A stretch of DNA of 36,096 nt from Haliangiales bacterium (GCA_038321315.1 JBBQEX010000005.1:1-36096), one strand, 5' to 3'; shown: positions 3,007 through 19,861, counted from the stretch's first letter. The notes: generated by a model not told the origin, from the letters alone. Numbers and translations: made by a program.

Positions 3007-5118
3007 TTGGATGAGCTGCGATCCGTGAAACTCGTCCTCGCCGCCACCCTGTTGCTCGCCGCGACCCCGGCGTTCGCCGAAACCGAGACGCCCGCCGCCG
3101 ACGAGCCGGTGTTCCACTGCAACTCGAAGCAGGCCGAGGTCACGATCACGTTCAAGCCGGAGATGGAGATCCGCGAGCTGGTGACCTGGGCGGTCGGGTT
3201 CACCTGCAAGAAGTTCATCTTCGAGACGCGCACCGTGTCGCCCGGCAAGAAGGTCACGATCATCGCGCCGCAGAAGCTGTCGCGCGAGGACGCCTACCAG
3301 GTGTTCCTCGCCGGGCTCGAGACCGTCGGGCTCACCGTCGTGCCCAAGGGTGCGGCGCTGTCGATCGTCGACGCGCAGGGCGCGAAGAAGGAGAGCGTGC
3401 CGATCTACAAGGAGCTGCCGCCGTCGAGCGAGCAGGTCGTGCGCTACGTCGTGCGTCCGACGTTCGTGCAAGCCGAGACGCTGAAGAGCGCCTTTCTGGC
3501 GTTCAAGTCCGACGCCGGCGACGTCGTCACGATCGGCCAGGTCGTGCTGATCACCGACTACGCGAGCCACGTGCGCGACATGGCGTCGATGCTGCCGATC
3601 ATCGACGTCCCGGGCGGCACCGATGGCATCTACACGATCCCGGTGCTCCACGCCGACGCGGCCAAGCTCGCCGAGAAGGTCGACAAGCTGCTCGCGCCGA
3701 CGACCAAGGATCTCCCGGCGCCGAAGATCATGGTCGACGAGCGGACCAACACGCTGATCGTGTCCGCGAGCGAGGCCGGCTACCGGCGCGCCAAGGCGAT
3801 CGTCGAGCGGCTCGACATCGCGCTCGCGATGGAGGACGGCGCGTCGATGCACGTCTATCAGCTCGGCAGCGCGATCGCCGAGGAGCTCGCCGCCACGCTG
3901 TCGAAGGCGATCCAGAAGACCAGCGACAAGAAGGCCGGCCCGACGCCGACAACGGCGAACCCGGGCGCACCGCTCGACGCGCTGGCGACGCTCGATGGCC
4001 CGGTCCACATCATCGGCGACAAGTCGACGAACTCGCTGATCATCACGTCGAGCGCGCACGACTACCTGGCGATGAAGGAGATCGTCCGGCTGCTCGATCA
4101 ACCGCGGCGGCAGGTCTACATCGAGGCGCTGATCCTCGAGGTCGCGGTCGGCGATCAGACCAAGATCGGGACCTCGTCGCACGGCGGCACCCAGGCGGGC
4201 AACTCGCTGCTCCTCGGCGGCGTACAGACGCCGGGCACGAGCACGCTCGGCATCGGCACCACCGACGGCGCGGCCTCGCTCGCCGGGCTCAGCGGCCTGG
4301 TCGCCGGGATCGTCGGCAAGTCGCTCGCGAACTCGACGAGCCTGCTCGGCACCAGCATCCCGTCGTACGCCGTGCTGTTCAACGCCGTCGCGACCCAGGG
4401 CGACACCGAGATCATGTCGGAGCCGAGCATCATCGCGCTCGACAACGAGGAGGCCAAGTACAAGGTCGGCACCGACATCCCGTACGTGCGCGGGACCTAT
4501 CCGACGGCGTCGGCGTCGAGCCCGTTCGGCGGCACCGGCACGAACATCGATCGCAAGGAGCTCGCGCTCGAGCTCGACATCAAGCCGCACATCTCGGCCG
4601 ACGACACCGTGCTGCTCGAGATCAAGCACGACTCCAAGGACCTCGGCGACGACAGCTCGCTCGGCCCGACCTGGTCGACGCGCGAGCTCGAGACCCGCGT
4701 GCTGGTGCGCGATCAGCACACCGTGGTGATCGGCGGCCTGATGCAGACCAAGGACATCAACACGCTGACCAAGGTGCCGTTCCTCGGCGACATCCCGGTG
4801 ATCGGGCACCTGTTCAAGTACACCTCGCGGATCAAGAAGAAGACCGACCTCCTGATCCTGTTGACGCCGTACATCATCCGCGACCAGAGCGACCTCGAGA
4901 GGATCCGCGAGCGCAAGGCGCGGCAGCACGAGGAGTTCGTCGAGTCGTACGCCGCGCTGTCGACCGCCCGCTACGTGCCGTCGATCGACTACACGCGCAA
5001 GCGCGGGCTCGTCGAGGAGATCAACCACGCGGTCGCCGACGTCGAGCACGACATCGACAGCCGCAACACGATGACGCCGCCGCAGACCGTGGCGCCGGGT
5101 CCGGTCGAGATGCGATAA
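3007..5118 (+). CDS. gspD: Secretin of the type II secretion / type IV pilus family (GspD-like: N0 domain plus C-terminal secretin domain)
   Basis: Signal peptide (KLVLAATLLLAATPAFA). N0-like region (KVTIIAPQKLSREDAYQVFLAGLETVGLTVVP). Secretin signature VPFLGDIPVIGHLFKYTSRIKKKTDLLILLTPYIIR. Gly/Ser/Thr-rich barrel loops. A GTG at 3025 is an alternative start. Confidence 0.7.
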   Translation: MDELRSVKLVLAATLLLAATPAFAETETPAADEPVFHCNSKQAEVTITFKPEMEIRELVTWAVGFTCKKFIFETRTVSPGKKVTIIAPQKLSREDAYQVFLAGLETVGLTVVPKGAALSIVDAQGAKKESVPIYKELPPSSEQVVRYVVRPTFVQAETLKSAFLAFKSDAGDVVTIGQVVLITDYASHVRDMASMLPIIDVPGGTDGIYTIPVLHADAAKLAEKVDKLLAPTTKDLPAPKIMVDERTNTLIVSASEAGYRRAKAIVERLDIALAMEDGASMHVYQLGSAIAEELAATLSKAIQKTSDKKAGPTPTTANPGAPLDALATLDGPVHIIGDKSTNSLIITSSAHDYLAMKEIVRLLDQPRRQVYIEALILEVAVGDQTKIGTSSHGGTQAGNSLLLGGVQTPGTSTLGIGTTDGAASLAGLSGLVAGIVGKSLANSTSLLGTSIPSYAVLFNAVATQGDTEIMSEPSIIALDNEEAKYKVGTDIPYVRGTYPTASASSPFGGTGTNIDRKELALELDIKPHISADDTVLLEIKHDSKDLGDDSSLGPTWSTRELETRVLVRDQHTVVIGGLMQTKDINTLTKVPFLGDIPVIGHLFKYTSRIKKKTDLLILLTPYIIRDQSDLERIRERKARQHEEFVESYAALSTARYVPSIDYTRKRGLVEEINHAVADVEHDIDSRNTMTPPQTVAPGPVEMR

Positions 5119-5125
5119 CGGTGGC

Positions 5126-5893
5126 GTGGTCCGGGTCCTCCTCGTCTTCGTGCTGCTCGGTGCGCATGTCGCCGCGGCGCAGATCGTCAATGCGCAGAGC
5201 GCGCTCGCAGCGCCGTCCAAGGGCAACGGCGTCGTCGGCTCGGTCGAGGCCAAGATCGACTGGCGCGAGGGCAACAACTCGCTGATCGACACCAGCGCGA
5301 CCGCCACGCTGGTCGTCCGCCACGATCGCATCCTCGTCCTGGGCGTCGCGCGCGGCGGCTACGGCGAGAGCCGCGGCCAGGTGCTCACGAAGAAGACGTT
5401 CGAGCACCTGCGGACCCGCATCAAGCTCGACCCGCGCTGGCGCTGGGAGGGCTACGCGCAGCACGAGTACGACCAGTTCCGCCGGATCGCGCTGCGCGCC
5501 CTGGTCGGGACCGGCCCGGCCCTCGTGGTGTTCGACCGGCCCGCCGGCGGCATGATCTCGGGGCTTTCGCTGATGTTCGACTACGAGCGGCTCGATCAGC
5601 GGCGCGGCACGATCGACGCCGGCAAGCGCTACGGCGTGTTTCGCGCGTCGGCGTACCTCGCGGGGCACGAGCAACTCGCGCCGAGCGCGCTGCTGATCCA
5701 GACCATCTACGTCCAGCCGCGGTTCGACGACGCGAGCGCGTATCGCGTGCTCGGCGAGCTGACGCTGCTCAACAAGCTGTCGTCGCGGATCGCGCTGACC
5801 AACGGCTTCTCGGTGTCGTACGACGCGACGCCGCCGGTCGGCGTCAAGCGCTACGACGCCGAGCTCAAGGTCGGTGCGGTCGTGTCGTTTTGA
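5126..5893 (+). CDS. DUF481-family (YdiY-like) outer-membrane beta-barrel protein
   Basis: GTG start 7 nt after the secretin stop. Signal peptide MVRVLLVFVLLGAHVAAAQ. Alternating hydrophobic beta pattern. C-terminal ...GAVVSF ends in Phe, the usual outer-membrane-protein signal. Confidence 0.55.
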   Translation: MVRVLLVFVLLGAHVAAAQIVNAQSALAAPSKGNGVVGSVEAKIDWREGNNSLIDTSATATLVVRHDRILVLGVARGGYGESRGQVLTKKTFEHLRTRIKLDPRWRWEGYAQHEYDQFRRIALRALVGTGPALVVFDRPAGGMISGLSLMFDYERLDQRRGTIDAGKRYGVFRASAYLAGHEQLAPSALLIQTIYVQPRFDDASAYRVLGELTLLNKLSSRIALTNGFSVSYDATPPVGVKRYDAELKVGAVVSF

Positions 5894-11085: not shown

Positions 11086-11245
11086 GGGTCAGGTATCGTT
11101 CCACAACTCGTGCCACGCCAACAGCGCGAAATGGAGCAAGCCCGGCCTCCGGCTGGGCGTAGATGATCGGGTGGCAGACGTTGCCAGCTGGATTCCCCGA
11201 CACCGGGCGTTGGTAACTCCTACAGTCCTTCCGTACGATAGCGTG

Positions 11246-11998
11246 ATGACGCGGCGGACCTTCGCGGTCGGGGACATTCACGGGGATCTCGGGGCAGTCG
11301 AGAAGCTGTTCTCGCGGATCCCGGAGCTCACTCCGGATGACACGGTCGTCTTCCTCGGCGACTTCATCGACCGCGGGCCCGACTCGGCCAAGGTCGTCCA
11401 GTGGGTGCGCGACCTCCAGGCCAACAGCCCTGCCAAGGTGGTCTGTCTGCGCGGCAATCACGAGGATGCCTGGCTCGAGGTCATCGACCGCGGCTGGGCG
11501 GAGTTCGTGTTCCCGCGCGGCAACGGTTGCTTCGAGTCCCTGCGCTCGTTCGCCGGTGGCAAGCCGCCGACCGACGACGAGCTGCCGACCGAGGACGAGC
11601 TCGAAGCGATGATCACCGGCAGCTTCTTGCCGGTCGAGGTCGTGTCGTGGTTCCGCGAGCTCGCGCACTTCTACGAGGACGAGCACGCGATCTACGTGCA
11701 CGCCGGGATCAAGCGCGTCGACGGCGAGTTCCCGCATCCGTCGAAGGTCGATCCGCCGCGCGCGCTCCTGTGGCTGCGCGATCGCGACTTCTTCGAGCAC
11801 TACCGCGGCAAGCTCGTCGTGTTCGGCCACACGACGACGCGGACGTTGCCGAACGAGCTGTCGACCTACACGCCCGAGGATCCGACGGACCTGTGGGCCG
11901 GCCCCGCGTGCGTCGGGCTCGACACCGCCTGCGGCAAGGGCGGATTTCTCACGGCGTTCGAGCTCCCCGATCGAAAAGTCTACGAATCGCGTGACTGA
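11246..11998 (+). CDS. PPP-family serine/threonine protein phosphatase / metallophosphoesterase (ApaH/PrpE-like)
   Basis: GDIHGDL, GDFIDRGPDS and LRGNHE are the canonical GDxHG / GDxxDRG / GNHE motifs. ATG at 11246 is in the frame of ORF 10505..11998. Confidence 0.8.
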   Translation: MTRRTFAVGDIHGDLGAVEKLFSRIPELTPDDTVVFLGDFIDRGPDSAKVVQWVRDLQANSPAKVVCLRGNHEDAWLEVIDRGWAEFVFPRGNGCFESLRSFAGGKPPTDDELPTEDELEAMITGSFLPVEVVSWFRELAHFYEDEHAIYVHAGIKRVDGEFPHPSKVDPPRALLWLRDRDFFEHYRGKLVVFGHTTTRTLPNELSTYTPEDPTDLWAGPACVGLDTACGKGGFLTAFELPDRKVYESRD

Positions 11999-12545
11999 AG
12001 CTGCGGCGCTGCGCGCGAACCTTCGCGCCGGCGGACGCGGTCTTCGCGCGATCCGCGTGCTTGCCTAGCATCTGGCGCTCCTTGTCGGTGCCGACGAAGA
12101 TCTCGCGCGTCTTCGCGAGGATGTCGAACCACGACCACGCGACGCCGAAGTTCATGTCCTGATCGCCCATGTGGTGGTCGTAGTGCCACGACAGGTGATC
12201 GCGCGCCCACGCCGGATCGAGGTGGGCGTGCCGGTGATCGCGGCGATAGCGGTACAGGCAGTACCAGACCGTCGCGGTGTAGAACGGGGCGATCGGGAAC
12301 AGCGGCACGTGGACGAGCGCGATCGCGGCGAGCCCGATCGCCTCGCGCGCCTGCGTCGGCGTCGACCACACCGGACCCTCGTACGCCGGGTCGTAGCCCC
12401 CGTTGCGGCGCACCGCCTGATGATGATCGTGATAGTGGAACGAGAACCGGCTCGCACGATCGCGACCGAGGCCGTGGAGCACGTGCTTGTGGATCGCCCA
12501 CTCGCCGTAGCCGAACACCGCGAAGGCGACCGGGATCCCGAGCAT
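11949..12545 (-). CDS. Fatty-acid hydroxylase / sterol desaturase superfamily integral membrane protein
   Basis: His boxes HKHVLH, HYHDHH and HYDHH, with hydrophobic spans. Start at MLGIPV (Met83 of ORF 11949..12791). The 3' end overlaps the convergent phosphatase gene by about 50 nt. Confidence 0.65.
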   Translation of the reverse strand: MLGIPVAFAVFGYGEWAIHKHVLHGLGRDRASRFSFHYHDHHQAVRRNGGYDPAYEGPVWSTPTQAREAIGLAAIALVHVPLFPIAPFYTATVWYCLYRYRRDHRHAHLDPAWARDHLSWHYDHHMGDQDMNFGVAWSWFDILAKTREIFVGTDKERQMLGKHADRAKTASAGAKVRAQRRSFSHAIRRLFDRGARTP

Positions 12546-12553
12546 GCGAGAGC

Positions 12554-12880
12554 TTACTTCGGCGCCGGCAGATACGCGCGCGGAATCGCGCCGCCCGCGA
12601 GGAACTGGCGGCGCCGGCGGCGACCGAGCGCGCGCTGGGTCGCGAGGATCGAGCCGAACCCGGCGAACGCGCCGCCGGTCGCGACGATCCAGCTGAACCC
12701 GAGCATCGGCAACACGACGCCGATCGAGATCATCGCGAGCATGCCGCCGAGCACGCTGACGATGATGTCGCTCGCGTTGCGACGGTTCCACGCATCGAAC
12801 GCGAGCTCGCAGTCACCGCACCAGCCGGTGCGGGCGAGCGTCGTGTCGGCCTGGCAGCGCTTGCAGGTCATCGACCCCAC
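12554..12880 (-). CDS. Small membrane protein with an N-terminal zinc-ribbon (CxxC…CxxC) and two TM helices
   Basis: MTCKRCQ…WCGDCE, then two hydrophobic helices (VSVLGGMLAMISIGVVLPMLGF, IVATGGAFAGFGSILA) and a basic tail. Sits 8 nt upstream of the hydroxylase gene. Confidence 0.5.
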   Translation of the reverse strand: MGSMTCKRCQADTTLARTGWCGDCELAFDAWNRRNASDIIVSVLGGMLAMISIGVVLPMLGFSWIVATGGAFAGFGSILATQRALGRRRRRQFLAGGAIPRAYLPAPK

Positions 12881-12926
12881 GCTGCGCTCGGGCTGCTCGC
12901 TTCGCTCGCAATCGCGGTCATCGCGG

Positions 12927-13763
12927 TCATCGCGTGACGGTATAGCCCGCGCGCGCGAGCAGGGTAGGGAGGCCGCCGTCGCCGAGCAGGTGGCCGAGGC
13001 CGACCGCGACGAACGTCGTGCCGGTCGCGTCGACGTAGGCCTCGATCTTCGGCAGCCACACCGTGTTGCGATCGGAGATCAGGTGCGAGCTGTCGACCAG
13101 CAGCTTGATCTTCAGCGCCTCGGCGTCGCTCGCGAGGTACGCGGCCTGCGTCTGATCCTGGCTGCAGCGGATCGAGCGCCGCGCGTGGATCGCGTCCGCG
13201 AGGTCGCTCGGCGCGACCGCGGCGTCGAGCGCGGCGAGCTGCACCTCCCAGGTCTCCAGTGCATCGATCGGCAGGTGGTGCTCGCTGGCGCGTGCGGTGA
13301 GCGCGTCGTCCATCGACGGCTTCGGCGCCGGCGCGACCTTCGCCATCAGCTTGATCATGGCGTACCACGGCTTGGCGTGACGGAGATCCTCGGTGTGGAT
13401 CGTGCCGTGCAACGCGTCGTCGAGCGCCCACCAGTCGTCGTTCGCGAGCAGGCCATCGAGCGACTTGCCGCCGTACGGGATGCGCGCGAGCTCGATGAAC
13501 TTGTCCTTGTCGGGCTCCTTGTCGCCGAGCTCCGACGCGTAGTGCTGTGCGCTCGCGAGCGCGTCCCACACCGGCTTGGCGACGTCGGGCGTCGACGCGG
13601 TGTGGATCGTGCCGAACAGGATCACCGCGCCGGGCGCGCCGGCCTTGGTGACGTGCCACAGGAACGGCGCGCCGTGCGGAGCGCTGTACTTCGGCAGCTC
13701 GCAGCGCGGTGCCGGCGTGCCGCACGCCGCGAGGGCGAGCACGAGCAGCGCGCGGGTCACCAC
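12927..13763 (-). CDS. TraB/GumN (TIKI-like) family lipoprotein
   Basis: Signal peptide with lipobox VVTRALLVLALAACG. Motifs LFGTIHTAS (GTxH) and VAVGLGHLLG (GxGHL) are characteristic of the TraB/GumN/TIKI family. The GTG start overlaps the stop of the upstream gene as GTGA. Confidence 0.65.
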   Translation of the reverse strand: MVTRALLVLALAACGTPAPRCELPKYSAPHGAPFLWHVTKAGAPGAVILFGTIHTASTPDVAKPVWDALASAQHYASELGDKEPDKDKFIELARIPYGGKSLDGLLANDDWWALDDALHGTIHTEDLRHAKPWYAMIKLMAKVAPAPKPSMDDALTARASEHHLPIDALETWEVQLAALDAAVAPSDLADAIHARRSIRCSQDQTQAAYLASDAEALKIKLLVDSSHLISDRNTVWLPKIEAYVDATGTTFVAVGLGHLLGDGGLPTLLARAGYTVTR

Positions 13764-14869
13764 AGCTTGTGCGGCCCGACGAGCGCGTCGACCTCGTCGT
13801 CGCTCGGTCCGGATTTCAGCTTGATCGTCGCGACGCCATCGGTCCCGACGGTGACGTCGAGGACGGTCGGCGCCGGCGCCGGCTTGGCGGTCACCTTGCC
13901 GTTCCCGGCGAGCACGTCGACGTCGACCGAGCGCGAGACCGGAACGTCGACGAGCGGGCAGCGCGGTGGCGTCTTCGCGTCGCCGGCGACGCACAGCGTC
14001 AACAGCTTGGCGTGCTCGAACTCCGAGCGCGTGTCGTCGTCGTTCGTCGAGCTCATCGAGTTCTGCGTGTTCTCGACGTTGCGCCAGATCCACCAGACGT
14101 CGTGCTTGCCGACCGACTTCTTCTCGACCTTGTCGATGAACGTCGCCTCGACGCCCTGCATCCGATCGATGTCGAGCTCGGCATCGGCGACGTAGCGGCC
14201 GGCATCGTCGAACAGGTACGCGTAGCTGCCGCGACCCCGCAGCTCCCACAGGTGGAGCCCGGCGAGCGGCGCCGGCGTCTTCTCCTCGCAGGTCGCGTCC
14301 GCGGCGTCGAAGTGTGGCGTGAACGCGTTCTCCTTCAGGCACGCGCACGGCTTCTGGTTCGGCTTGCACGCGAGCCCGGCGACCTCGGCTGGCGCCTTGG
14401 GGTTCTGCCCGAGGCGCACGATCGCGTCGCCGACCGTCTTGTTCGGGCGCAGCGCGACCGACGCGAGGTACGCGCGCACCGCGCCATCCTTGTCGCCCGA
14501 CTTCTCGAGCACGGTGCCGAGGTTGTAGAGGGCCGCGGCCTTCACCTTCTTGTCGATCGCGACCGCGACGGCCTCCTCGTCGGCGATCCGCGCCTTCTTG
14601 AAGTCGCCGGCGTTCATCGCCGAGAACCCCAGCTCGCCGAGCGCGCGCGCGTCGGCCGGGACCGCGACGAGCGCGGCCTCGAACTCGGGTACCGCGGCGG
14701 CCCACTGCTTGGTCTTCTGCGCCGCCCAGCCGCGCTTCATGTGCTGCTTGAACTCGGTCTTGGCCTTGGCGGTCGGCGGCGGCGGCGCCTTGTGTGGTCT
14801 GGGATCGGCGACCGCGGCCGAGGCGATCGCGAGGACGAGGACGACAGCGCGCTTCATCGCCTTCACCAT
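13757..14869 (-). CDS. Secreted TPR-like, Cys-rich protein (paralog B of a tandem pair)
   Basis: Signal peptide MKRAVVLVLAIASAAVA. TPR-like block WAAAVPEFEAALVAVPADARALGELGFSAMNAGDFKKAR. Conserved Cys pattern CKPNQKPCACLK…ATCEE…LCVAGDAKTPPRCPL. C-terminal SGPSDDEVDALVGPHKLW is shared with the gene at 14863-16056. Confidence 0.6.
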   Translation of the reverse strand: MVKAMKRAVVLVLAIASAAVADPRPHKAPPPPTAKAKTEFKQHMKRGWAAQKTKQWAAAVPEFEAALVAVPADARALGELGFSAMNAGDFKKARIADEEAVAVAIDKKVKAAALYNLGTVLEKSGDKDGAVRAYLASVALRPNKTVGDAIVRLGQNPKAPAEVAGLACKPNQKPCACLKENAFTPHFDAADATCEEKTPAPLAGLHLWELRGRGSYAYLFDDAGRYVADAELDIDRMQGVEATFIDKVEKKSVGKHDVWWIWRNVENTQNSMSSTNDDDTRSEFEHAKLLTLCVAGDAKTPPRCPLVDVPVSRSVDVDVLAGNGKVTAKPAPAPTVLDVTVGTDGVATIKLKSGPSDDEVDALVGPHKLW

Positions 14870-16056
14870 AGCTTGTGCGGGCCCACGAGGGCGTCGATCT
14901 GTTCGTCGCTCGGGCCCGACGTCAGCTTGATCGTGACCACACCGTCGGCGCCGAGCGCGACGTCGAGCAGCGTCTCGGTCGAGCTCGACTTCTTGGCGAC
15001 CTTGTCGTCGGGCCCGAGGGTCTCGCTCTCGAGCTTGCGCTGCTTCGGGATCCCGACGAGCGGACAGCGCGTCGGCTGCTTGGCCTCGCCGACCACGCAG
15101 ATCGTGACCTCGTGCCCGGTCAGGATCTCGGTCGTGACGTCGTCGTCATCGCCGGTCGACTCGCTCGAGTTGTCGATCGACGTCTCGATCCACAGCACCT
15201 GGTGGGTCCCGAGCTTCTTGACCTCGATCCTGTCGACCGTCGTGGTCTGCATCGCGCGGCGCTGTTCGTCCTCGAGGCCGAGGTCGGCGATGTAGCGACC
15301 GGCGTCGTCGAACAGGTAGTCGAACTCGGTGTGCGTGCGGTCGTCGTCTTCCTGCTTCCACACGTGGAAGCCGGGCGCGGGTGGCGGACCCTCGGTGCAC
15401 TTCGCGACGTCCGACGTCATCTTGCCCATGAACGCGTCCTGCTTCATGCAGTCGCACGGCTTCTGATCGGGCTTGCAGACCTCGGTGACCGCGACCGCCG
15501 GATCCTTGCCGAGCTTGCCGACCGCCTCCATCACCGTCTTGTTCGGGCGCAGCGCGAGCGACGCGACGTACGACTTGAGCGCGCCGTCCTTGTCGCCGGT
15601 CTTCTCCTGCACGGTGCCGAGGTTGTAGAGGCCCGCGGCCTTCACCTTCTTGTCGACCGCGATCGCGATCGCCTGCTCGTCGGCCTCGCGCGCCTTCTTG
15701 AAGTCGCCGGCGTTCATCGCCGACCAGCCGAGCTCGGTGAGCGCGCGCGGATCACTCGGGATCGCGACGAGCGCGGCCTCGAACTCCGGCACCGACTCCG
15801 CCCACTTCTTGGCCTTCTGCGCCGTCCAGCCTGCCTTCAGGTGCTTCTTGAACTCGGCCTTCTGCTCGGCGGTCGCCGGGGCGTGCTTGTGCGTCCGCTT
15901 CTTCGACGGCGCCGCGGAGCCCGAGCCCGCCTTCGGCGCCTCGACGACCTTCGGCGCGACCGCGCTGCCGCTGCCGCTGCCGGTCTTCGCCGGATCGTTC
16001 GCAGGTGCCTTGCCGCAGCCGACCGTCAACACCGCGACCGCGAGCAGGAGCTTCAT
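14863..16056 (-). CDS. TPR-like, Cys-rich lipoprotein (paralog A of a tandem pair)
   Basis: Lipoprotein signal MKLLLAVAVLTVGCG. Gly/Ser/Ala/Pro/Lys-rich linker. The same TPR-like block and Cys pattern (CKPDQKPCDCMK…AKCTEG…ICVVGEAKQPTRCPL). C-terminal SGPSDEQIDALVGPHKLW. ATG at 16054-16056. Confidence 0.65.
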   Translation of the reverse strand: MKLLLAVAVLTVGCGKAPANDPAKTGSGSGSAVAPKVVEAPKAGSGSAAPSKKRTHKHAPATAEQKAEFKKHLKAGWTAQKAKKWAESVPEFEAALVAIPSDPRALTELGWSAMNAGDFKKAREADEQAIAIAVDKKVKAAGLYNLGTVQEKTGDKDGALKSYVASLALRPNKTVMEAVGKLGKDPAVAVTEVCKPDQKPCDCMKQDAFMGKMTSDVAKCTEGPPPAPGFHVWKQEDDDRTHTEFDYLFDDAGRYIADLGLEDEQRRAMQTTTVDRIEVKKLGTHQVLWIETSIDNSSESTGDDDDVTTEILTGHEVTICVVGEAKQPTRCPLVGIPKQRKLESETLGPDDKVAKKSSSTETLLDVALGADGVVTIKLTSGPSDEQIDALVGPHKLW

Positions 16057-16069
16057 GGCGCGGACGGTA

Positions 16070-16738
16070 CTACGGCTGTCGCGGGAAGCCCTCGAACAGG
16101 TAGCCGCGATCGGAGCCACCGTCGATCAACCGGACCGCGCAGTTGTGCGGATTGGTCTCGGCCTCGAACCACTCGGGCGACAGGTGACACCACATCATGA
16201 CGAACGCGCGCAGCGTCACGCCGTGGCAGATCACGACGAGGTTCTTGATGCCGTGCTCGATGTGATCGCGATGGAACGTCCCGAACGCCTGGTGGATGCG
16301 CTTGGCGACATCGAACCGGCTCTCGCCCATCGGCATACGTGCCCAGAACTTGCCGCCGAACCGACACGTCATGTCGTAGTACGCGTGCTCCTGCGGGAAG
16401 CGCACCGGCAGATCCTCGTCGGGCACGCCGTCGAACAGGCCGAACTGTTGCTCGCACAGGAGGATGTGCTCGACGCGATCGGTGATCCACGGACCGCAGG
16501 TCTCCATCAGCGCGTCGGCGGTCTGGCGCGTGCGCAGGTACGGGCTCACCCACAGCCGCACGTGCGGGCGCGAGTCACCGAGATCCGCGGCGAGGCTCGC
16601 GGCGACGCGGCGGCCGGCCTCGCGCGCCTGCTCGACGCCGCGATCCGACAGCGGCACCGCGTGATCCGCCGTGGTCTGGTGGATCTGCGCGTTCAGGTTG
16701 CCGAGCGACTCGCCGTGACGCACGAGGATGATCCGCAC
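16070..16738 (-). CDS. Histidine phosphatase superfamily protein (phosphoglycerate-mutase-like branch)
   Basis: VRIILVRHGESLGN (the RHG catalytic motif) near the N-terminus, and a later HG in the GHGIKNLVVICHGVT region. GTG start 14 nt downstream of the previous gene's stop. The remaining upstream codons of the 830-aa ORF are junk. Confidence 0.65.
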   Translation of the reverse strand: MRIILVRHGESLGNLNAQIHQTTADHAVPLSDRGVEQAREAGRRVAASLAADLGDSRPHVRLWVSPYLRTRQTADALMETCGPWITDRVEHILLCEQQFGLFDGVPDEDLPVRFPQEHAYYDMTCRFGGKFWARMPMGESRFDVAKRIHQAFGTFHRDHIEHGIKNLVVICHGVTLRAFVMMWCHLSPEWFEAETNPHNCAVRLIDGGSDRGYLFEGFPRQP

Positions 16739-16752
16739 GCCGTCACGGTACC

Positions 16753-18273
16753 TCAGTTGCGGCGGCGTCGTCGCAGCACGGCGAGGACGCCGAGCGTGCC
16801 GAGCCCGGACGCGACTCCACCGCCGGCGCCGGTCGCGCAGCCGCAGCCCTGGGGCTGACGGATCGCACCCGGGATCGCGACGACCTTGCTGTTCAGCGCC
16901 GAGCTGCCGGGCACGCCGCCCGCGAGCATCGTCCCGAGATCGACGCTGCCGCGCGGCGCGAACGCCGTGTTCGTCGCGACGCTCGCGTTGGCGATCTGCG
17001 AGCCGTTCGGGCCGCCCCAGCGACCGCGCGCCGGGCTCGCGCACGCGACCTCGCCGAGCCACGGATGCAGGATCACGTAGCGACCCTGGAAGTTGTTCGA
17101 GCCATCGCGGCCGACCTCGGTCGGCAGCGCACCCTGCGGGTCGGGGATCCCGCGCCCGCCGAAGATCGGTTCGACCGCGCGGAACACGAGGTCGTTGGTG
17201 ATCGACTTGCCGTAGCGCGCGTGCAGCCGCGTCAGCGTGTAGCTCGCGTTCGTCGCGTCCTTGTAGGTCGTGCCGATCACGTCGGCGCCGAGCGTCGCGA
17301 GATCGGCGGCATCGAGCGTCGGCCCCGGGCACGGATCGCAGCTGCCGCTGTCCCACGCGTACTCGGTGACGACCGCGCCGGGGACCTGCTCGACGGTGTG
17401 ATCGAACAGCGCGGCATAGAACTCGCCGAAGTGGGTGCGCACCTGATCGGTGACGCCGAGGTTCGTCGGGATCGTGACGTTCGGATAGTTCGCGACCTCG
17501 TAGCGCGTGTTCGGCGCGAGGATGTTCACGATCAGATCTTGCGTGCCCTTGCTGTTCGCGAGCCCGAGCCGGATCGGCAGCACGAAGTCGGGGCTGTCGT
17601 AGTGGAAGCGCAGCGGCGACAGCGTGACCATGCCGTTGACGAACTGGACCTTCTTCGGATCGACCTTGGCGACGAAGAACTTGGTGCCCTGCTCGATGTA
17701 CGGACGCAGCAGCGGCGCCGCGCCGGCGGGGATCTCGTACTTGTTGTCGTGGAGCCAGTGCTCGAGTCCGGTCGAGTCCTTCGCGGACAACACGACGATG
17801 TCGTACTCGCCGACCGAGAACTTCGCCTCGATCTTCACCTGGTACTTCTTGCGCGGCGCCGAGTCGCCGTCGTCGGAGGCCTCGTCGGCCTCCATGCGCA
17901 TCGCGCCGGGCACCAGATCCTCGCCGTCGTACTCGGGGCGACACGGATCCTGCTCCCAGTACTCGACGAGCCGCGGCGCGCCAAGCGTGTCGACCTTGCC
18001 GAACACCTCGCGCGGCAGCGTCTTCACCTGATTCTCGTGGACGACGACCGGCACCGGCACGACCAGCGCGAAGTGCTCCGGTGGGCCCTGGTAGTTGTTC
18101 TGCATCGACAGCACGGTGGTCGTGCCGTGCCGCATCATCACGACCTCGGTCGCGTTGTTGAACATCTCGGCCTTCGCGCCGCCGACGTAGAACCCGCAGA
18201 ACGCCTCGGCGCGCGGTGCGGCGAACATGCCGGCCGCGAACACCGCGGTGAGAGCCAAGGATCGTGGCTGCAT
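16753..18273 (-). CDS. Secreted DUF2330-like protein with a C-terminal MYXO-CTERM sorting domain
   Basis: Signal peptide MQPRSLALTAVFAAGMFAAPRAEA followed by FCGFYVGG. C-terminus …QGCGCATGAGGGVASGLGTLGVLAVLRRRRRN (GCGC, hydrophobic helix, poly-Arg). A GGGGGA Shine-Dalgarno lies upstream of the ATG at 18271-18273. Confidence 0.65.
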   Translation of the reverse strand: MQPRSLALTAVFAAGMFAAPRAEAFCGFYVGGAKAEMFNNATEVVMMRHGTTTVLSMQNNYQGPPEHFALVVPVPVVVHENQVKTLPREVFGKVDTLGAPRLVEYWEQDPCRPEYDGEDLVPGAMRMEADEASDDGDSAPRKKYQVKIEAKFSVGEYDIVVLSAKDSTGLEHWLHDNKYEIPAGAAPLLRPYIEQGTKFFVAKVDPKKVQFVNGMVTLSPLRFHYDSPDFVLPIRLGLANSKGTQDLIVNILAPNTRYEVANYPNVTIPTNLGVTDQVRTHFGEFYAALFDHTVEQVPGAVVTEYAWDSGSCDPCPGPTLDAADLATLGADVIGTTYKDATNASYTLTRLHARYGKSITNDLVFRAVEPIFGGRGIPDPQGALPTEVGRDGSNNFQGRYVILHPWLGEVACASPARGRWGGPNGSQIANASVATNTAFAPRGSVDLGTMLAGGVPGSSALNSKVVAIPGAIRQPQGCGCATGAGGGVASGLGTLGVLAVLRRRRRN

Positions 18274-18308
18274 ATTTGTCCCCCAACGCACGGTGCGCGC
18301 GGTTCGGT

Positions 18309-19313
18309 CTAGTTGAGGGGCCGGAACACGTAGAGCTGATCGGTCGGTTCGAACTTGAGCTGCTGCGCGCCACCCGGGATGTAGAGCTGCTCGCCAACGA
18401 CGACGCCCTGCGTACCGGCGCGCGCCATCGGGATATCGGGCAACGCGGCCCACGTATCGGTCGACGGCTCGTACTCCTCGACGACGTGGAGCGCGGCCTG
18501 GTTGGCCTCGCCGCCGGCACACAGCAGGTGGCCGCCGATCGGGCCGTACGCGCAGCCGCCACGCGGCGTCGGCATCGGCGCCTTGGCGACCCACGCGGTC
18601 GCGCCGGTCGCGAGCGACCACACGTCCCGCTGCGGCTGGCTGGCGTCGAGCGTCGCGAGCCCGCCGGCGACGATCAGCTCGCCGTCATCGGCGCGGCGCA
18701 TCGCGGCCGGGTGCGAGCGCGCGGCCGGGAGATCCGGCAGCATGCTCCAGGTGTCGGTCATCAGGTTGTAGTCGAGGCAGCTCGCCAGCGCGCTCGTGGT
18801 CGACGCGCCGCCGATCAAGAAGATGTGCGGCGGCGAGACGACGACGCCGGCGGCGCCGCGCTCCATGCCGGTCGGCAGCGGCGCGATCGGCAGCCAGGCG
18901 TCGCCGCCGACCTCGAGCTTGTACGCCGCGCCCTCGGCGGTGAACTCCTGACCCGACGTGCCGCCGAGCAGGTACAGCGTGCCGGCCGACGACGCGAGAT
19001 CGACGTGCGTCCACGCGACCGGCGCCGCGGGCAGGATCGACCAGCTCGCCGCGAGCGTGTCGTAGACGTCGACGCTCGTCGTGATGTGCAGGCCGGCCTC
19101 GAGCCCGGTGTCGAACCCGCCGAGCATCACGATGCGGGTGCCGAGCGCGGCGACGCCGGGTTCGAGCGCGGCGCGCGGCATCGTGATCGCGGTCCACGGC
19201 GCGCTCGGTGCGTCGACCGAGCCGGGGCTCGACGAACAGCCGACGACGACGACCAGAAACGTCAACCGCACGACGGCAGCGTATCCCAAAGTTAGATCGC
19301 GGTCCGGTGTCAT
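18309..19313 (-). CDS. Kelch-repeat beta-propeller lipoprotein
   Basis: Lipobox LTFLVVVVGCSSSP. Repeated GG-containing blades (LGGFD, LLGGTSG, FLIGGAS, VAGGLAT, LCAGGEA, YIPGG) typical of Kelch / galactose-oxidase propellers. The start may be the internal GTG near 19268. Confidence 0.6.
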   Translation of the reverse strand: MTPDRDLTLGYAAVVRLTFLVVVVGCSSSPGSVDAPSAPWTAITMPRAALEPGVAALGTRIVMLGGFDTGLEAGLHITTSVDVYDTLAASWSILPAAPVAWTHVDLASSAGTLYLLGGTSGQEFTAEGAAYKLEVGGDAWLPIAPLPTGMERGAAGVVVSPPHIFLIGGASTTSALASCLDYNLMTDTWSMLPDLPAARSHPAAMRRADDGELIVAGGLATLDASQPQRDVWSLATGATAWVAKAPMPTPRGGCAYGPIGGHLLCAGGEANQAALHVVEEYEPSTDTWAALPDIPMARAGTQGVVVGEQLYIPGGAQQLKFEPTDQLYVFRPLN

Positions 19314-19327
19314 GCGTTCTGGTAGGC

Positions 19328-19861
19328 GTGCGGACCCTCACGATCTGCGTCCTCCTCGCGACGCCCGCCGTCGCCGGGGCCGATGGCCTCCATCCCTACG
19401 CGCCGGTCTCGACCTCGCTGTCGGTCATGATCCGCGACGATCACGGCGGAGGCACCGAGACCACCTCGGCGGGCGCGACGCTCGAGCTCGCCGTCGGATC
19501 GGGCCGGTTCCAGTACTTCGCCGAAGGCACCAGCGCCTTTCTCCAGAGCACCGATTCCGGCAGCGAGATGCGCGGCGGGCTCGGCGTGCGCTGGCTCGCG
19601 CGCTCGTTCGAGATCGGTCGCGAAGGTGCGTTCGAGCTCGATCTCGAGGGCCTCACCGGGCTGACCCGGTTGCACCACGACGCCGGTGACACCCGGGTGT
19701 ATCCCGACGTCGGCTTCGGCGTCGGCTGGGCGGTGCGCATGCTCGATCCGCGCATCGTGTTCCGCGTCAGCGCGCGCGCGATGTTCGAGCAGACCCGGCG
19801 TGATGGTATGTCGGCGTCGAGCGTGCCCGGGTTCGTCGCCCTGTTCGGGTTCGGCTACTGA
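19328..19861 (+). CDS. Small secreted beta-rich hypothetical protein
   Basis: GTG start with signal peptide VRTLTICVLLATPAVAGA. Ends …FVALFGFGY. Its stop overlaps the next ATG as TGATG. Confidence 0.45.
   Translation: MRTLTICVLLATPAVAGADGLHPYAPVSTSLSVMIRDDHGGGTETTSAGATLELAVGSGRFQYFAEGTSAFLQSTDSGSEMRGGLGVRWLARSFEIGREGAFELDLEGLTGLTRLHHDAGDTRVYPDVGFGVGWAVRMLDPRIVFRVSARAMFEQTRRDGMSASSVPGFVALFGFGY

Follow-up and report, generated by a model that had tools for sequence, protein, structure and literature searches.

MYXO-CTERM tags are cleaved by myxosortase, a CPBP protease, and the tagged proteins reach the surface by way of the T2SS (type II secretion system); genomes carry dozens of these cargos (PMC11980579). 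Active hydrolases of the TIKI family carry a set of two His and two Glu residues (2His/2Glu) (PMC6254334). Likenesses to these systems, to the fatty acid (FA) hydroxylase/sterol desaturase superfamily, to the three-TPR domains of Hop/Sti1/SGT/PP5 and to the periplasmic Kelch-type mutarotases NanM/YjhT are found together in a string of eight minus-strand genes (G1 to G8, positions 11949-19313) of a Haliangiales bacterium. The string lies in a 36,096-nt stretch of DNA (GCA_038321315.1 JBBQEX010000005.1:1-36096), referred to here as the window. Comparison with related loci argues that the string is probably an evolutionary patchwork in a variable slot of a conserved neighbourhood, and not one dedicated system. 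The genes are all new members of known or uncharacterised families; no evidence points to a new system. The eight genes are:

G1, 18309..19313, minus strand: Kelch beta-propeller lipoprotein, 334 amino acids (aa) (Kelch_1 E = 3e-25, Kelch_6 E = 5.5e-22)
G2, 16753..18273, minus strand: secreted DUF2330 protein that carries a MYXO-CTERM sorting tag, 506 aa (PF10092 and TIGR03901)
G3, 16070..16738, minus strand: cytoplasmic histidine phosphatase, branch 1, 222 aa (His_Phos_1, PF00300, E = 2e-25)
G4, 14863..16056, minus strand: lipoprotein with three TPRs and a beta-rich domain, 397 aa (TPR_2 E = 2e-12)
G5, 13757..14869, minus strand: tandem paralogue of G4, secreted, without a lipobox, 370 aa (TPR_2 E = 2e-12)
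G6, 12927..13763, minus strand: TraB/PrgY/GumN (TIKI superfamily) lipoprotein, 277-278 aa, with a start that overlaps the stop of G5 (PF01963)
G7, 12554..12880, minus strand: membrane protein with an N-terminal four-Cys zinc ribbon and two transmembrane (TM) helices, 105-108 aa (orthologue alignment)
G8, 11949..12545, minus strand: small membrane di-iron oxygenase of the FA_hydroxylase superfamily (FAH), 198 aa (PF04116 matches of its relatives, and His boxes)

The products resemble the described systems in part only: i) G2 has a signal peptide and the full tripartite C-terminal tag of the MYXO-CTERM/myxosortase (MrtX) system (Cys signature, TM helix, Arg cluster), but the cargo stands alone in the window, where Pfam scans gave no match to a CPBP/MrtX-type protease among the predicted proteins (one 63-aa open reading frame was not scanned). 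Since genomes carry dozens of cargos, the presence of a cargo gene is no sign that the genes around it form a processing system; ii) G6 is a clear PF01963 member of the TIKI/TraB/PrgY/GumN/ChaN/erythromycin-esterase superfamily, and its two GxxH motifs and Glu residues appear comparable to the 2His/2Glu set, but it is a small single-domain lipoprotein, coupled to a TPR/beta-domain gene in one subclade only; iii) G8 has four His boxes of the FA hydroxylase/sterol desaturase type (HX4H, HX3HH, HX3H and HX2HH; PF04116), but it is very short, itself falls under the Pfam cut-off, and is paired within its clade with a four-Cys zinc-ribbon (Zn-ribbon) membrane protein not described for that family; iv) the TPR domain of the G4/G5 family most resembles the three-TPR peptide-binding domains of Hop/Sti1/SGT/PP5, but these are exported bacterial proteins with an extra beta-rich six-Cys domain of ~180 aa and a GPHKLW end; and v) G1, a Kelch beta-propeller of ~330 aa with an export signal, matches the NanM models weakly, but its scores are far under the NCBIfam cut-offs (30.7 vs 416, 29.2 vs 243 and 26 vs 256 bits) and no sialic-acid genes are nearby, and a NanM/YjhT identity was rejected. 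No known system matches the string as a whole, in agreement with the original prediction, made from the sequence of the window, which had recognised none.

Gene order in related genomes

About 15 orthologous loci from Kofleriaceae-like Myxococcota were compared. The comparison anchored on G2 covered three long contigs and 80 metagenomic loci, by tblastn and gene maps, and a scan anchored on the TPR gene, with one genome per species, gave 25 loci. Conservation of the gene order in related genomes had been set beforehand as a check on the original prediction. The whole order did not withstand it: the eight-gene order was repeated in 0 of the ~15 orthologous loci, and sub-blocks alone recur. The constant parts are the gene for the Kelch lipoprotein at the 5' side, present in 11/11 loci where that side is visible, and the genes for the Zn-ribbon membrane protein and the small di-iron FAH protein at the 3' side. 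The adjacencies in the loci were as follows:

Kelch to DUF2330: adjacent in 10/11 observable loci
DUF2330 to histidine phosphatase: adjacent in 5/11 observable loci
Zn-ribbon to FAH: adjacent in 8/11 observable loci
TPR to TraB to Zn-ribbon: 3/3 loci, one subclade
TPR to TraB, for TPR homologues elsewhere: 0/17 loci
TraB beside any string gene, for TraB homologues elsewhere (L111, L113/L114): 0/3

The individual loci differ in the genes that accompany the constant parts:

L117 (491-kb contig, member of the G8 90% cluster): F420-type oxidoreductase, Kelch, Zn-ribbon, FAH; no DUF2330, histidine phosphatase, TPR or TraB gene within 10 kb
L031 and L037: Kelch, DUF2330, Zn-ribbon, without histidine phosphatase
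L036: Kelch, DUF2330, histidine phosphatase, Zn-ribbon, FAH, with gaps of 41, 9, 8 and 9 nt; compact, without TPR or TraB
L041: Kelch, DUF2330, histidine phosphatase, Zn-ribbon
L027, L028, L029 and L040: opposite-strand Band_7-like, VWA-FHA or unknown-family genes between DUF2330 and Zn-ribbon; FAH missing in L028
L110: DUF2330 (fragment), histidine phosphatase, one TPR gene, TraB (4-nt overlap), Zn-ribbon, FAH, convergent metallophosphoesterase
L115 and L116: TPR, TraB, Zn-ribbon, FAH

The window corresponds to the single-TPR version seen in L110, L115 and L116 with the TPR gene duplicated, and is the fullest version seen. Distant homologues of the TPR protein (17 loci), of TraB (~50% identity; L111 and L113/L114, in unrelated contexts) and of FAH (L119-L123) are unlinked, and distant DUF2330 arrays have different partners. 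On both strands, the neighbourhood in the orthologous clade runs from an F420-type oxidoreductase, Kelch and DUF2330 to a metallophosphoesterase, an outer-membrane beta-barrel protein, PhzF and an M1 peptidase. The flanking genes for the oxidoreductase, metallophosphoesterase, PhzF and M1 peptidase are as syntenic as the string itself, and the conserved order therefore reflects relatedness.

In the patchwork reading, a conserved Kofleriaceae frame would consist of the F420-type oxidoreductase, Kelch, the variable slot, Zn-ribbon plus FAH, the metallophosphoesterase, PhzF and the M1 peptidase. In the lineage of the window, the slot would contain the genes for a surface protein of the DUF2330 family, for a histidine phosphatase of the cytoplasm and for a TPR/beta-domain protein, the last with a stop that overlaps the start of a TraB/TIKI-type lipoprotein gene; a later tandem duplication of the TPR gene would have given G4 and G5. 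The products probably work as small units independent of one another. After export by Sec, G2 would undergo processing at the MYXO-CTERM tag and be presented on the surface by the general myxosortase/T2SS route of the genome, with G1 as a possible partner lipoprotein. G4 and G5 may be periplasmic TPR adaptors for the G6 hydrolase, G7 may be the membrane partner of the G8 oxygenase, which would modify a membrane lipid, and G3 would be an unrelated cytoplasmic phosphatase. The Kelch/DUF2330, TPR/TraB and Zn-ribbon/FAH pairs are reasonable candidates for functional units; if any of them is one, it would be a small addition to myxobacterial envelope biology, with no long-standing question resolved.

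Some observations weigh against a patchwork. The contigs available for comparison are mostly short metagenomic pieces of a single family-level clade, and the phylogenetic depth is limited. In every compact variant (L036, L110, L115, L116 and the window) the added genes point the same way and either overlap or lie very close together, which is also expected from selection for co-expression. Furthermore, export or a place in the membrane is found for seven of the eight products; to this extent the original description of the string as genes for "secreted and envelope proteins" stands, with the cytoplasmic G3 falling outside it.

These features of the string would also suit a functional module for envelope or surface-protein biogenesis, with Kelch, DUF2330, Zn-ribbon and FAH as its core and the histidine phosphatase, TPR and TraB proteins as lineage-specific accessories, drawn into the operon because they work on the same substrate. 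L036 has a compact five-gene core and L041 nearly so, the insertions in L110, L115, L116 and the window respect the orientation and leave the junctions tight or overlapping, the Kelch-DUF2330 and Zn-ribbon-FAH adjacencies recur as listed above, and the TIKI-type His and Glu residues are kept in G6 (PMC6254334). On the other side, DUF2330 is missing from the L117 locus while Kelch, Zn-ribbon and FAH stay, FAH is missing in L028, and in four loci the string is broken by genes on the opposite strand. No linkage is seen for homologues at 45-50% identity, the neighbours outside the string are just as syntenic, G3 is cytoplasmic, and MYXO-CTERM processing has already been assigned to myxosortase, a CPBP protease (PMC11980579). 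Such a module is thus doubtful. The original prediction had proposed an envelope or secreted-protein processing module. That proposal remains a guess from the theme of the products, little distinguished from ordinary synteny: the order is not conserved, DUF2330 is absent in L117, the string is split by opposite-strand genes and distant homologues are unlinked. No finding ties the TIKI-like protein to the MYXO-CTERM cargo.

The patchwork reading makes the string a useful negative result. Where a myxobacterial genome is compact and high in GC, tight same-strand packing and a shared "envelope" theme do not suffice for recognising a system, and a modest synteny survey splits the string into parts.

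Packing, boundaries and transcription

The window is ~70% GC, and raw lists of open reading frames are consequently crowded with spurious frames. A gene call by GC content at third codon positions (GC3) and a codon model recovered exactly eight consecutive minus-strand genes at 11949-19313, with GC3 values of 0.87-0.95 vs an overall GC of ~0.70. This confirms the genes as originally predicted, together with their gaps from G1 to G8 of 35, 14, 13, -7, -7, 46 and 8 nt when the same start codons are used. The start codons of G1, G6 and G7 are ambiguous, which leaves the tight packing unaffected. G1 possibly starts at GTG 19265 instead, giving MRLTFLVVVVGC... as its N-terminus. G6 likely starts at the second GTG (277 aa, like its database entry), creating a 4-nt GTGA overlap, and G7 at ATG 12871 (MTCKRC, as in its orthologues), which makes the G6-G7 gap 55 nt. 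With the revised starts the gaps span -7 to 55 nt. A simple consensus search found no minus-strand terminator-like site between the genes of the string, and the operon-like packing noted earlier is real; over the whole scan, terminator-like sites were not above the shuffled expectation. A scan for sigma-70-like promoters, which is uninformative for Myxococcota promoters, gave 0 sites.

The string is bounded on both sides by plus-strand genes:

19328..19861, plus strand: upstream boundary, divergent secreted-protein gene, 177 aa (gene call and signal peptide MRTLTICVLLATPAVAG)
11243..11998, plus strand: downstream boundary, convergent metallophosphoesterase (Metallophos E = 9.7e-18)

The start codons of G1 and the divergent gene are 14 nt apart if G1 begins at ATG 19313, or 62 nt if it begins at GTG 19265, and both promoters must therefore overlap coding sequence. 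The divergent protein has no Pfam match; homologues of it occur near the locus in L027 and L036. At the other end, G8 and the metallophosphoesterase gene share 50 nt at their 3' ends (11949-11998). L110 shows the same convergent 50-nt overlap (L110:4097-4146), and its metallophosphoesterase is 90% identical.

All eight genes lie on one strand with the short gaps typical of operons, and short same-strand spacing is the strongest single predictor of co-transcription in bacterial operon prediction. Judged purely by this spacing, it is most likely that a single polycistronic unit, or a small number of them, covers the string in this genome. Alternatively, there is no co-transcription, and the packing belongs to a compact high-GC genome in which each gene or pair has a promoter buried in the upstream coding sequence. 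Eleven of the 13 other same-strand junctions in the window are also <50 nt, and tight packing is therefore normal for this genome; the eight-gene run is the longest same-strand run in the window, and run length alone stands out. The Zn-ribbon-FAH pair follows opposite-strand genes in L027-L029 and must therefore have its own promoter there, and the promoters at the divergent starts upstream of G1 already overlap coding sequence. Against this, terminators do not fit into the overlaps of 4-7 nt (G4/G5 and G5/G6) or into the 8-14 nt between the genes at three other junctions, the minus strand carries no terminator-like site within the string, and spacing this short generally predicts co-transcription. 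Nor does the G6-G7 spacer contain a motif common to the regions upstream of Zn-ribbon genes in relatives, which would have hinted at an internal promoter. Transcription of the genes one by one or pair by pair is therefore unlikely.

The G6-G7 spacer (12881-12926) carries a tandem direct repeat, two copies of GATGACCGC, right after the G6 stop codon; the spacer has no similarity to its counterparts in relatives. Elsewhere in the window (3025-5893), a gene for a GspD-type secretin (Secretin, Secretin_N and N0 domains) is followed by one for a DUF481 outer-membrane protein. These two genes are ~7 kb from the string, and there are no other T2SS genes in the window. Rfam and tRNA scans of the whole window gave 0 matches, with no riboswitch, leader or integration-site tRNA. 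A defence-island reading was rejected, with 0 PADLOC matches for all eight proteins (E <= 0.001).

Proteins of the variable slot and of the 3' frame

In the Pfam/NCBIfam run, the family labels of the original prediction held for Kelch, DUF2330/MYXO-CTERM, His_Phos_1, TPR and TraB; the labels of the last two genes were not reached by the models themselves, G8 falling under the cut-off and G7 having no Pfam or NCBIfam match. G7 is nevertheless labeled a zinc ribbon because CxxC-x11-14-CxxC is invariant in 12 orthologues. A PRAYL motif is invariant in the same orthologues, which also retain the two TM helices, and the C-terminus of G7 reads RRRRxQFL...PRAYLP. G8 scores 20.1 bits against FA_hydroxylase (PF04116), under the cut-off of 31, but 42 of its 48 HMMER relatives match PF04116, the best with E = 1.3e-14. 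Across these 48 divergent relatives there is no variation at H19, H24, H41, H104, H108, H121, H124 and H125, while conservation is ~90% at H37 and H42. Through its relatives and its His boxes, G8 is assigned as a short membrane di-iron oxygenase, an assignment that holds by this route only. A PDB sequence search with G8 gave nothing meaningful.

Orthologues of G8 are 70-86% identical, and its 90% cluster has 67 members. Two members of that cluster, P0327 and P0330 (280 and 606 aa), are annotated as SAM-dependent/TIGR00027-family methyltransferases, which points to a fusion, to gene calls run together or to a sequence in the wrong cluster. The near-constant pairing of the Zn-ribbon membrane protein with a very short FA-hydroxylase-superfamily enzyme is a lead within the clade. 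It was also sought around a 48%-identical FAH homologue and rejected for that one distant lineage, where the neighbours are TetR and GntR, with no Zn-ribbon or Kelch. A gene for a dCache-Ser/Thr kinase stands between FAH (or Zn-ribbon) and the metallophosphoesterase in L027-L029 and L036, and after FAH in L117. It is improbable, and the least probable of the readings, that Kelch and the Zn-ribbon/di-iron oxygenase pair form a clade-specific envelope-modification unit, a docking operon that repeatedly recruits surface or periplasmic client genes (DUF2330 cargo, TPR/TraB) for co-expression, in which G7 could be the rubredoxin-like or structural partner that G8 needs to hydroxylate a membrane or anchor lipid. 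The near-zero spacing and unchanged orientation of the recruited genes in every compact variant would fit this reading.

The two tandem TPR genes were predicted to encode paralogous lipoproteins. They are paralogues, 53% identical, and G4 has a lipobox, LTVGC (TVGC). The signal peptide of G5, MKRAVVLVLAIASAAVA followed by D, contains no Cys, and G5 is therefore a secreted or periplasmic protein and not a lipoprotein. With 76 detectable members, each of them from a Kofleriaceae/Haliangiales-like metagenome-assembled genome, the family is marked by six invariant Cys in the beta-rich domain and an invariant C-terminal GPHKLW (alignments A1 and A3). Identities as BatC-like, PilF/Tgl-like or other TPR equivalogs were rejected, all scores being far under the cut-offs. 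The AlphaFold2 model of G5 (predicted local distance difference test score, pLDDT, 89.4; predicted template modelling score, pTM, 0.80) has a three-TPR domain and a beta-rich domain. PDB searches matched the TPR part of G5 alone, most like domains of the Hop/Sti1/SGT/PP5 type, and returned no match for the beta-rich domain of G4/G5. Several of the top TPR-domain matches are structures solved in complex with C-terminal peptides. This raises the idea that the TPR groove of the family may bind its own or a partner's C-terminal tail (GPHKLW-COOH).

At the loci of clear TPR homologues (L001-L014 and L016) the gene is single-copy, and no homologues of G1, G2, G3, G6, G7 or G8 were found within <=10 kb on each side, less at contig ends. 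The next gene after P0003 (L026, 62% by tblastn), the nearest relative of G4, is neither a paralogue nor TraB but an AAA-WHD gene on the opposite strand. In a tentative neighbour-joining tree (no bootstrap), G4, G5 and the TPR proteins of L026, L110 and L115 form one clade. This would be consistent with a TPR gene that joined the locus once and was then duplicated in tandem in the lineage of the window.

G6 matches PF01963 over positions 1-263 of the 263-position profile, with 128.8 bits (cut-off 26.8) and E = 4e-37, and has the lipobox LAAC. The residues GTxH53, E77, E169, E240 and GxxH257 are >=95% conserved in 120 homologues. No PDB relative of G6 was detectable by sequence search. The stop of the TPR gene overlaps the TraB start by 4 nt in L110 and L115 and by 1 nt in L116, and the closest TraB relatives (62-67% identical) are on three independent short contigs with the order of the window. 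The Kofleriaceae-specific exported TPR protein, with its six-Cys beta domain and invariant GPHKLW, coupled in one subclade to a TraB/TIKI lipoprotein, is a further lead.

G3 scores 90 bits against PF00300 (cut-off 21.7), with VRHGES at residues 6-11. Its N-terminus, VRIILVRHGES, places the RHG catalytic motif at the very start of the protein without a signal peptide, and G3 is therefore cytoplasmic. CobC, GpmB, PspA and SixA identities were rejected, all NCBIfam equivalog scores being far under the cut-offs. Orthologues of G3 are 74-83% identical and are found in only about half of the loci. In L027, where the histidine phosphatase is otherwise missing, a ~90-nt remnant of its 3' coding end (...NCAIRLIDGGADRGYVFDGF...) lies upstream of the Zn-ribbon gene (L027:8690-8828). 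This remnant is direct evidence of gene decay or turnover inside the slot.

The Kelch and DUF2330 proteins

Lipoproteins were recognised by a lipobox of the form [LVI][ASTVI][GAS]C closing the signal peptide. The lipobox of G1 is VVGC, and full-length orthologues likewise carry a lipobox and a short n-region. G2 matches PF10092 over positions 2-279 of the 279-position profile (192.6 bits, cut-off 24.7, E = 1e-56) and the MYXO-CTERM model TIGR03901 with 24.4 bits (cut-off 20). Its signal peptide ends in ...PRAEA, directly before FCGFYVGG, and its C-terminus consists of GCGC, a TM helix and RRRRRN, reading ...PQGCGCATGAGGGVASGLGTLGVLAVLRRRRRN. The MYXO-CTERM tag is kept in the 13 orthologues with a complete C-terminus. 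The mature N-terminus FCGFYVGG, right after the predicted cleavage site, is invariant in all DUF2330 orthologues with a complete N-terminus. Homologues of G2 number in the thousands at 65-78% identity, and DUF2330 orthologues are far more conserved than the products of neighbouring genes. A PDB sequence search with the G2 profile gave nothing meaningful, and the AlphaFold2 model, from a shallow input of 19 sequences, 64-78% identical, is unusable with a pLDDT of 32.9. A literature search for DUF2330 found nothing in the library covered, and the family, a surface protein with a MYXO-CTERM tag and unusually strong conservation, is a lead.

More distant DUF2330 genes (50-64% identical to G2) form tandem arrays of 2-4 copies. 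The loci include L043, L044, L047, L049 (for example, L049:10001-16081), L055, L075, L091, L092 and L096. Several distant loci have an Abhydrolase_3 protein and other recurring genes upstream. After the DUF2330 array or single gene, 12 loci have a gene for a conserved ~726-aa protein that carries TPRs and resembles multihaem cytochrome c554 at its N-terminus, which points to a different conserved neighbourhood, possibly redox-related.

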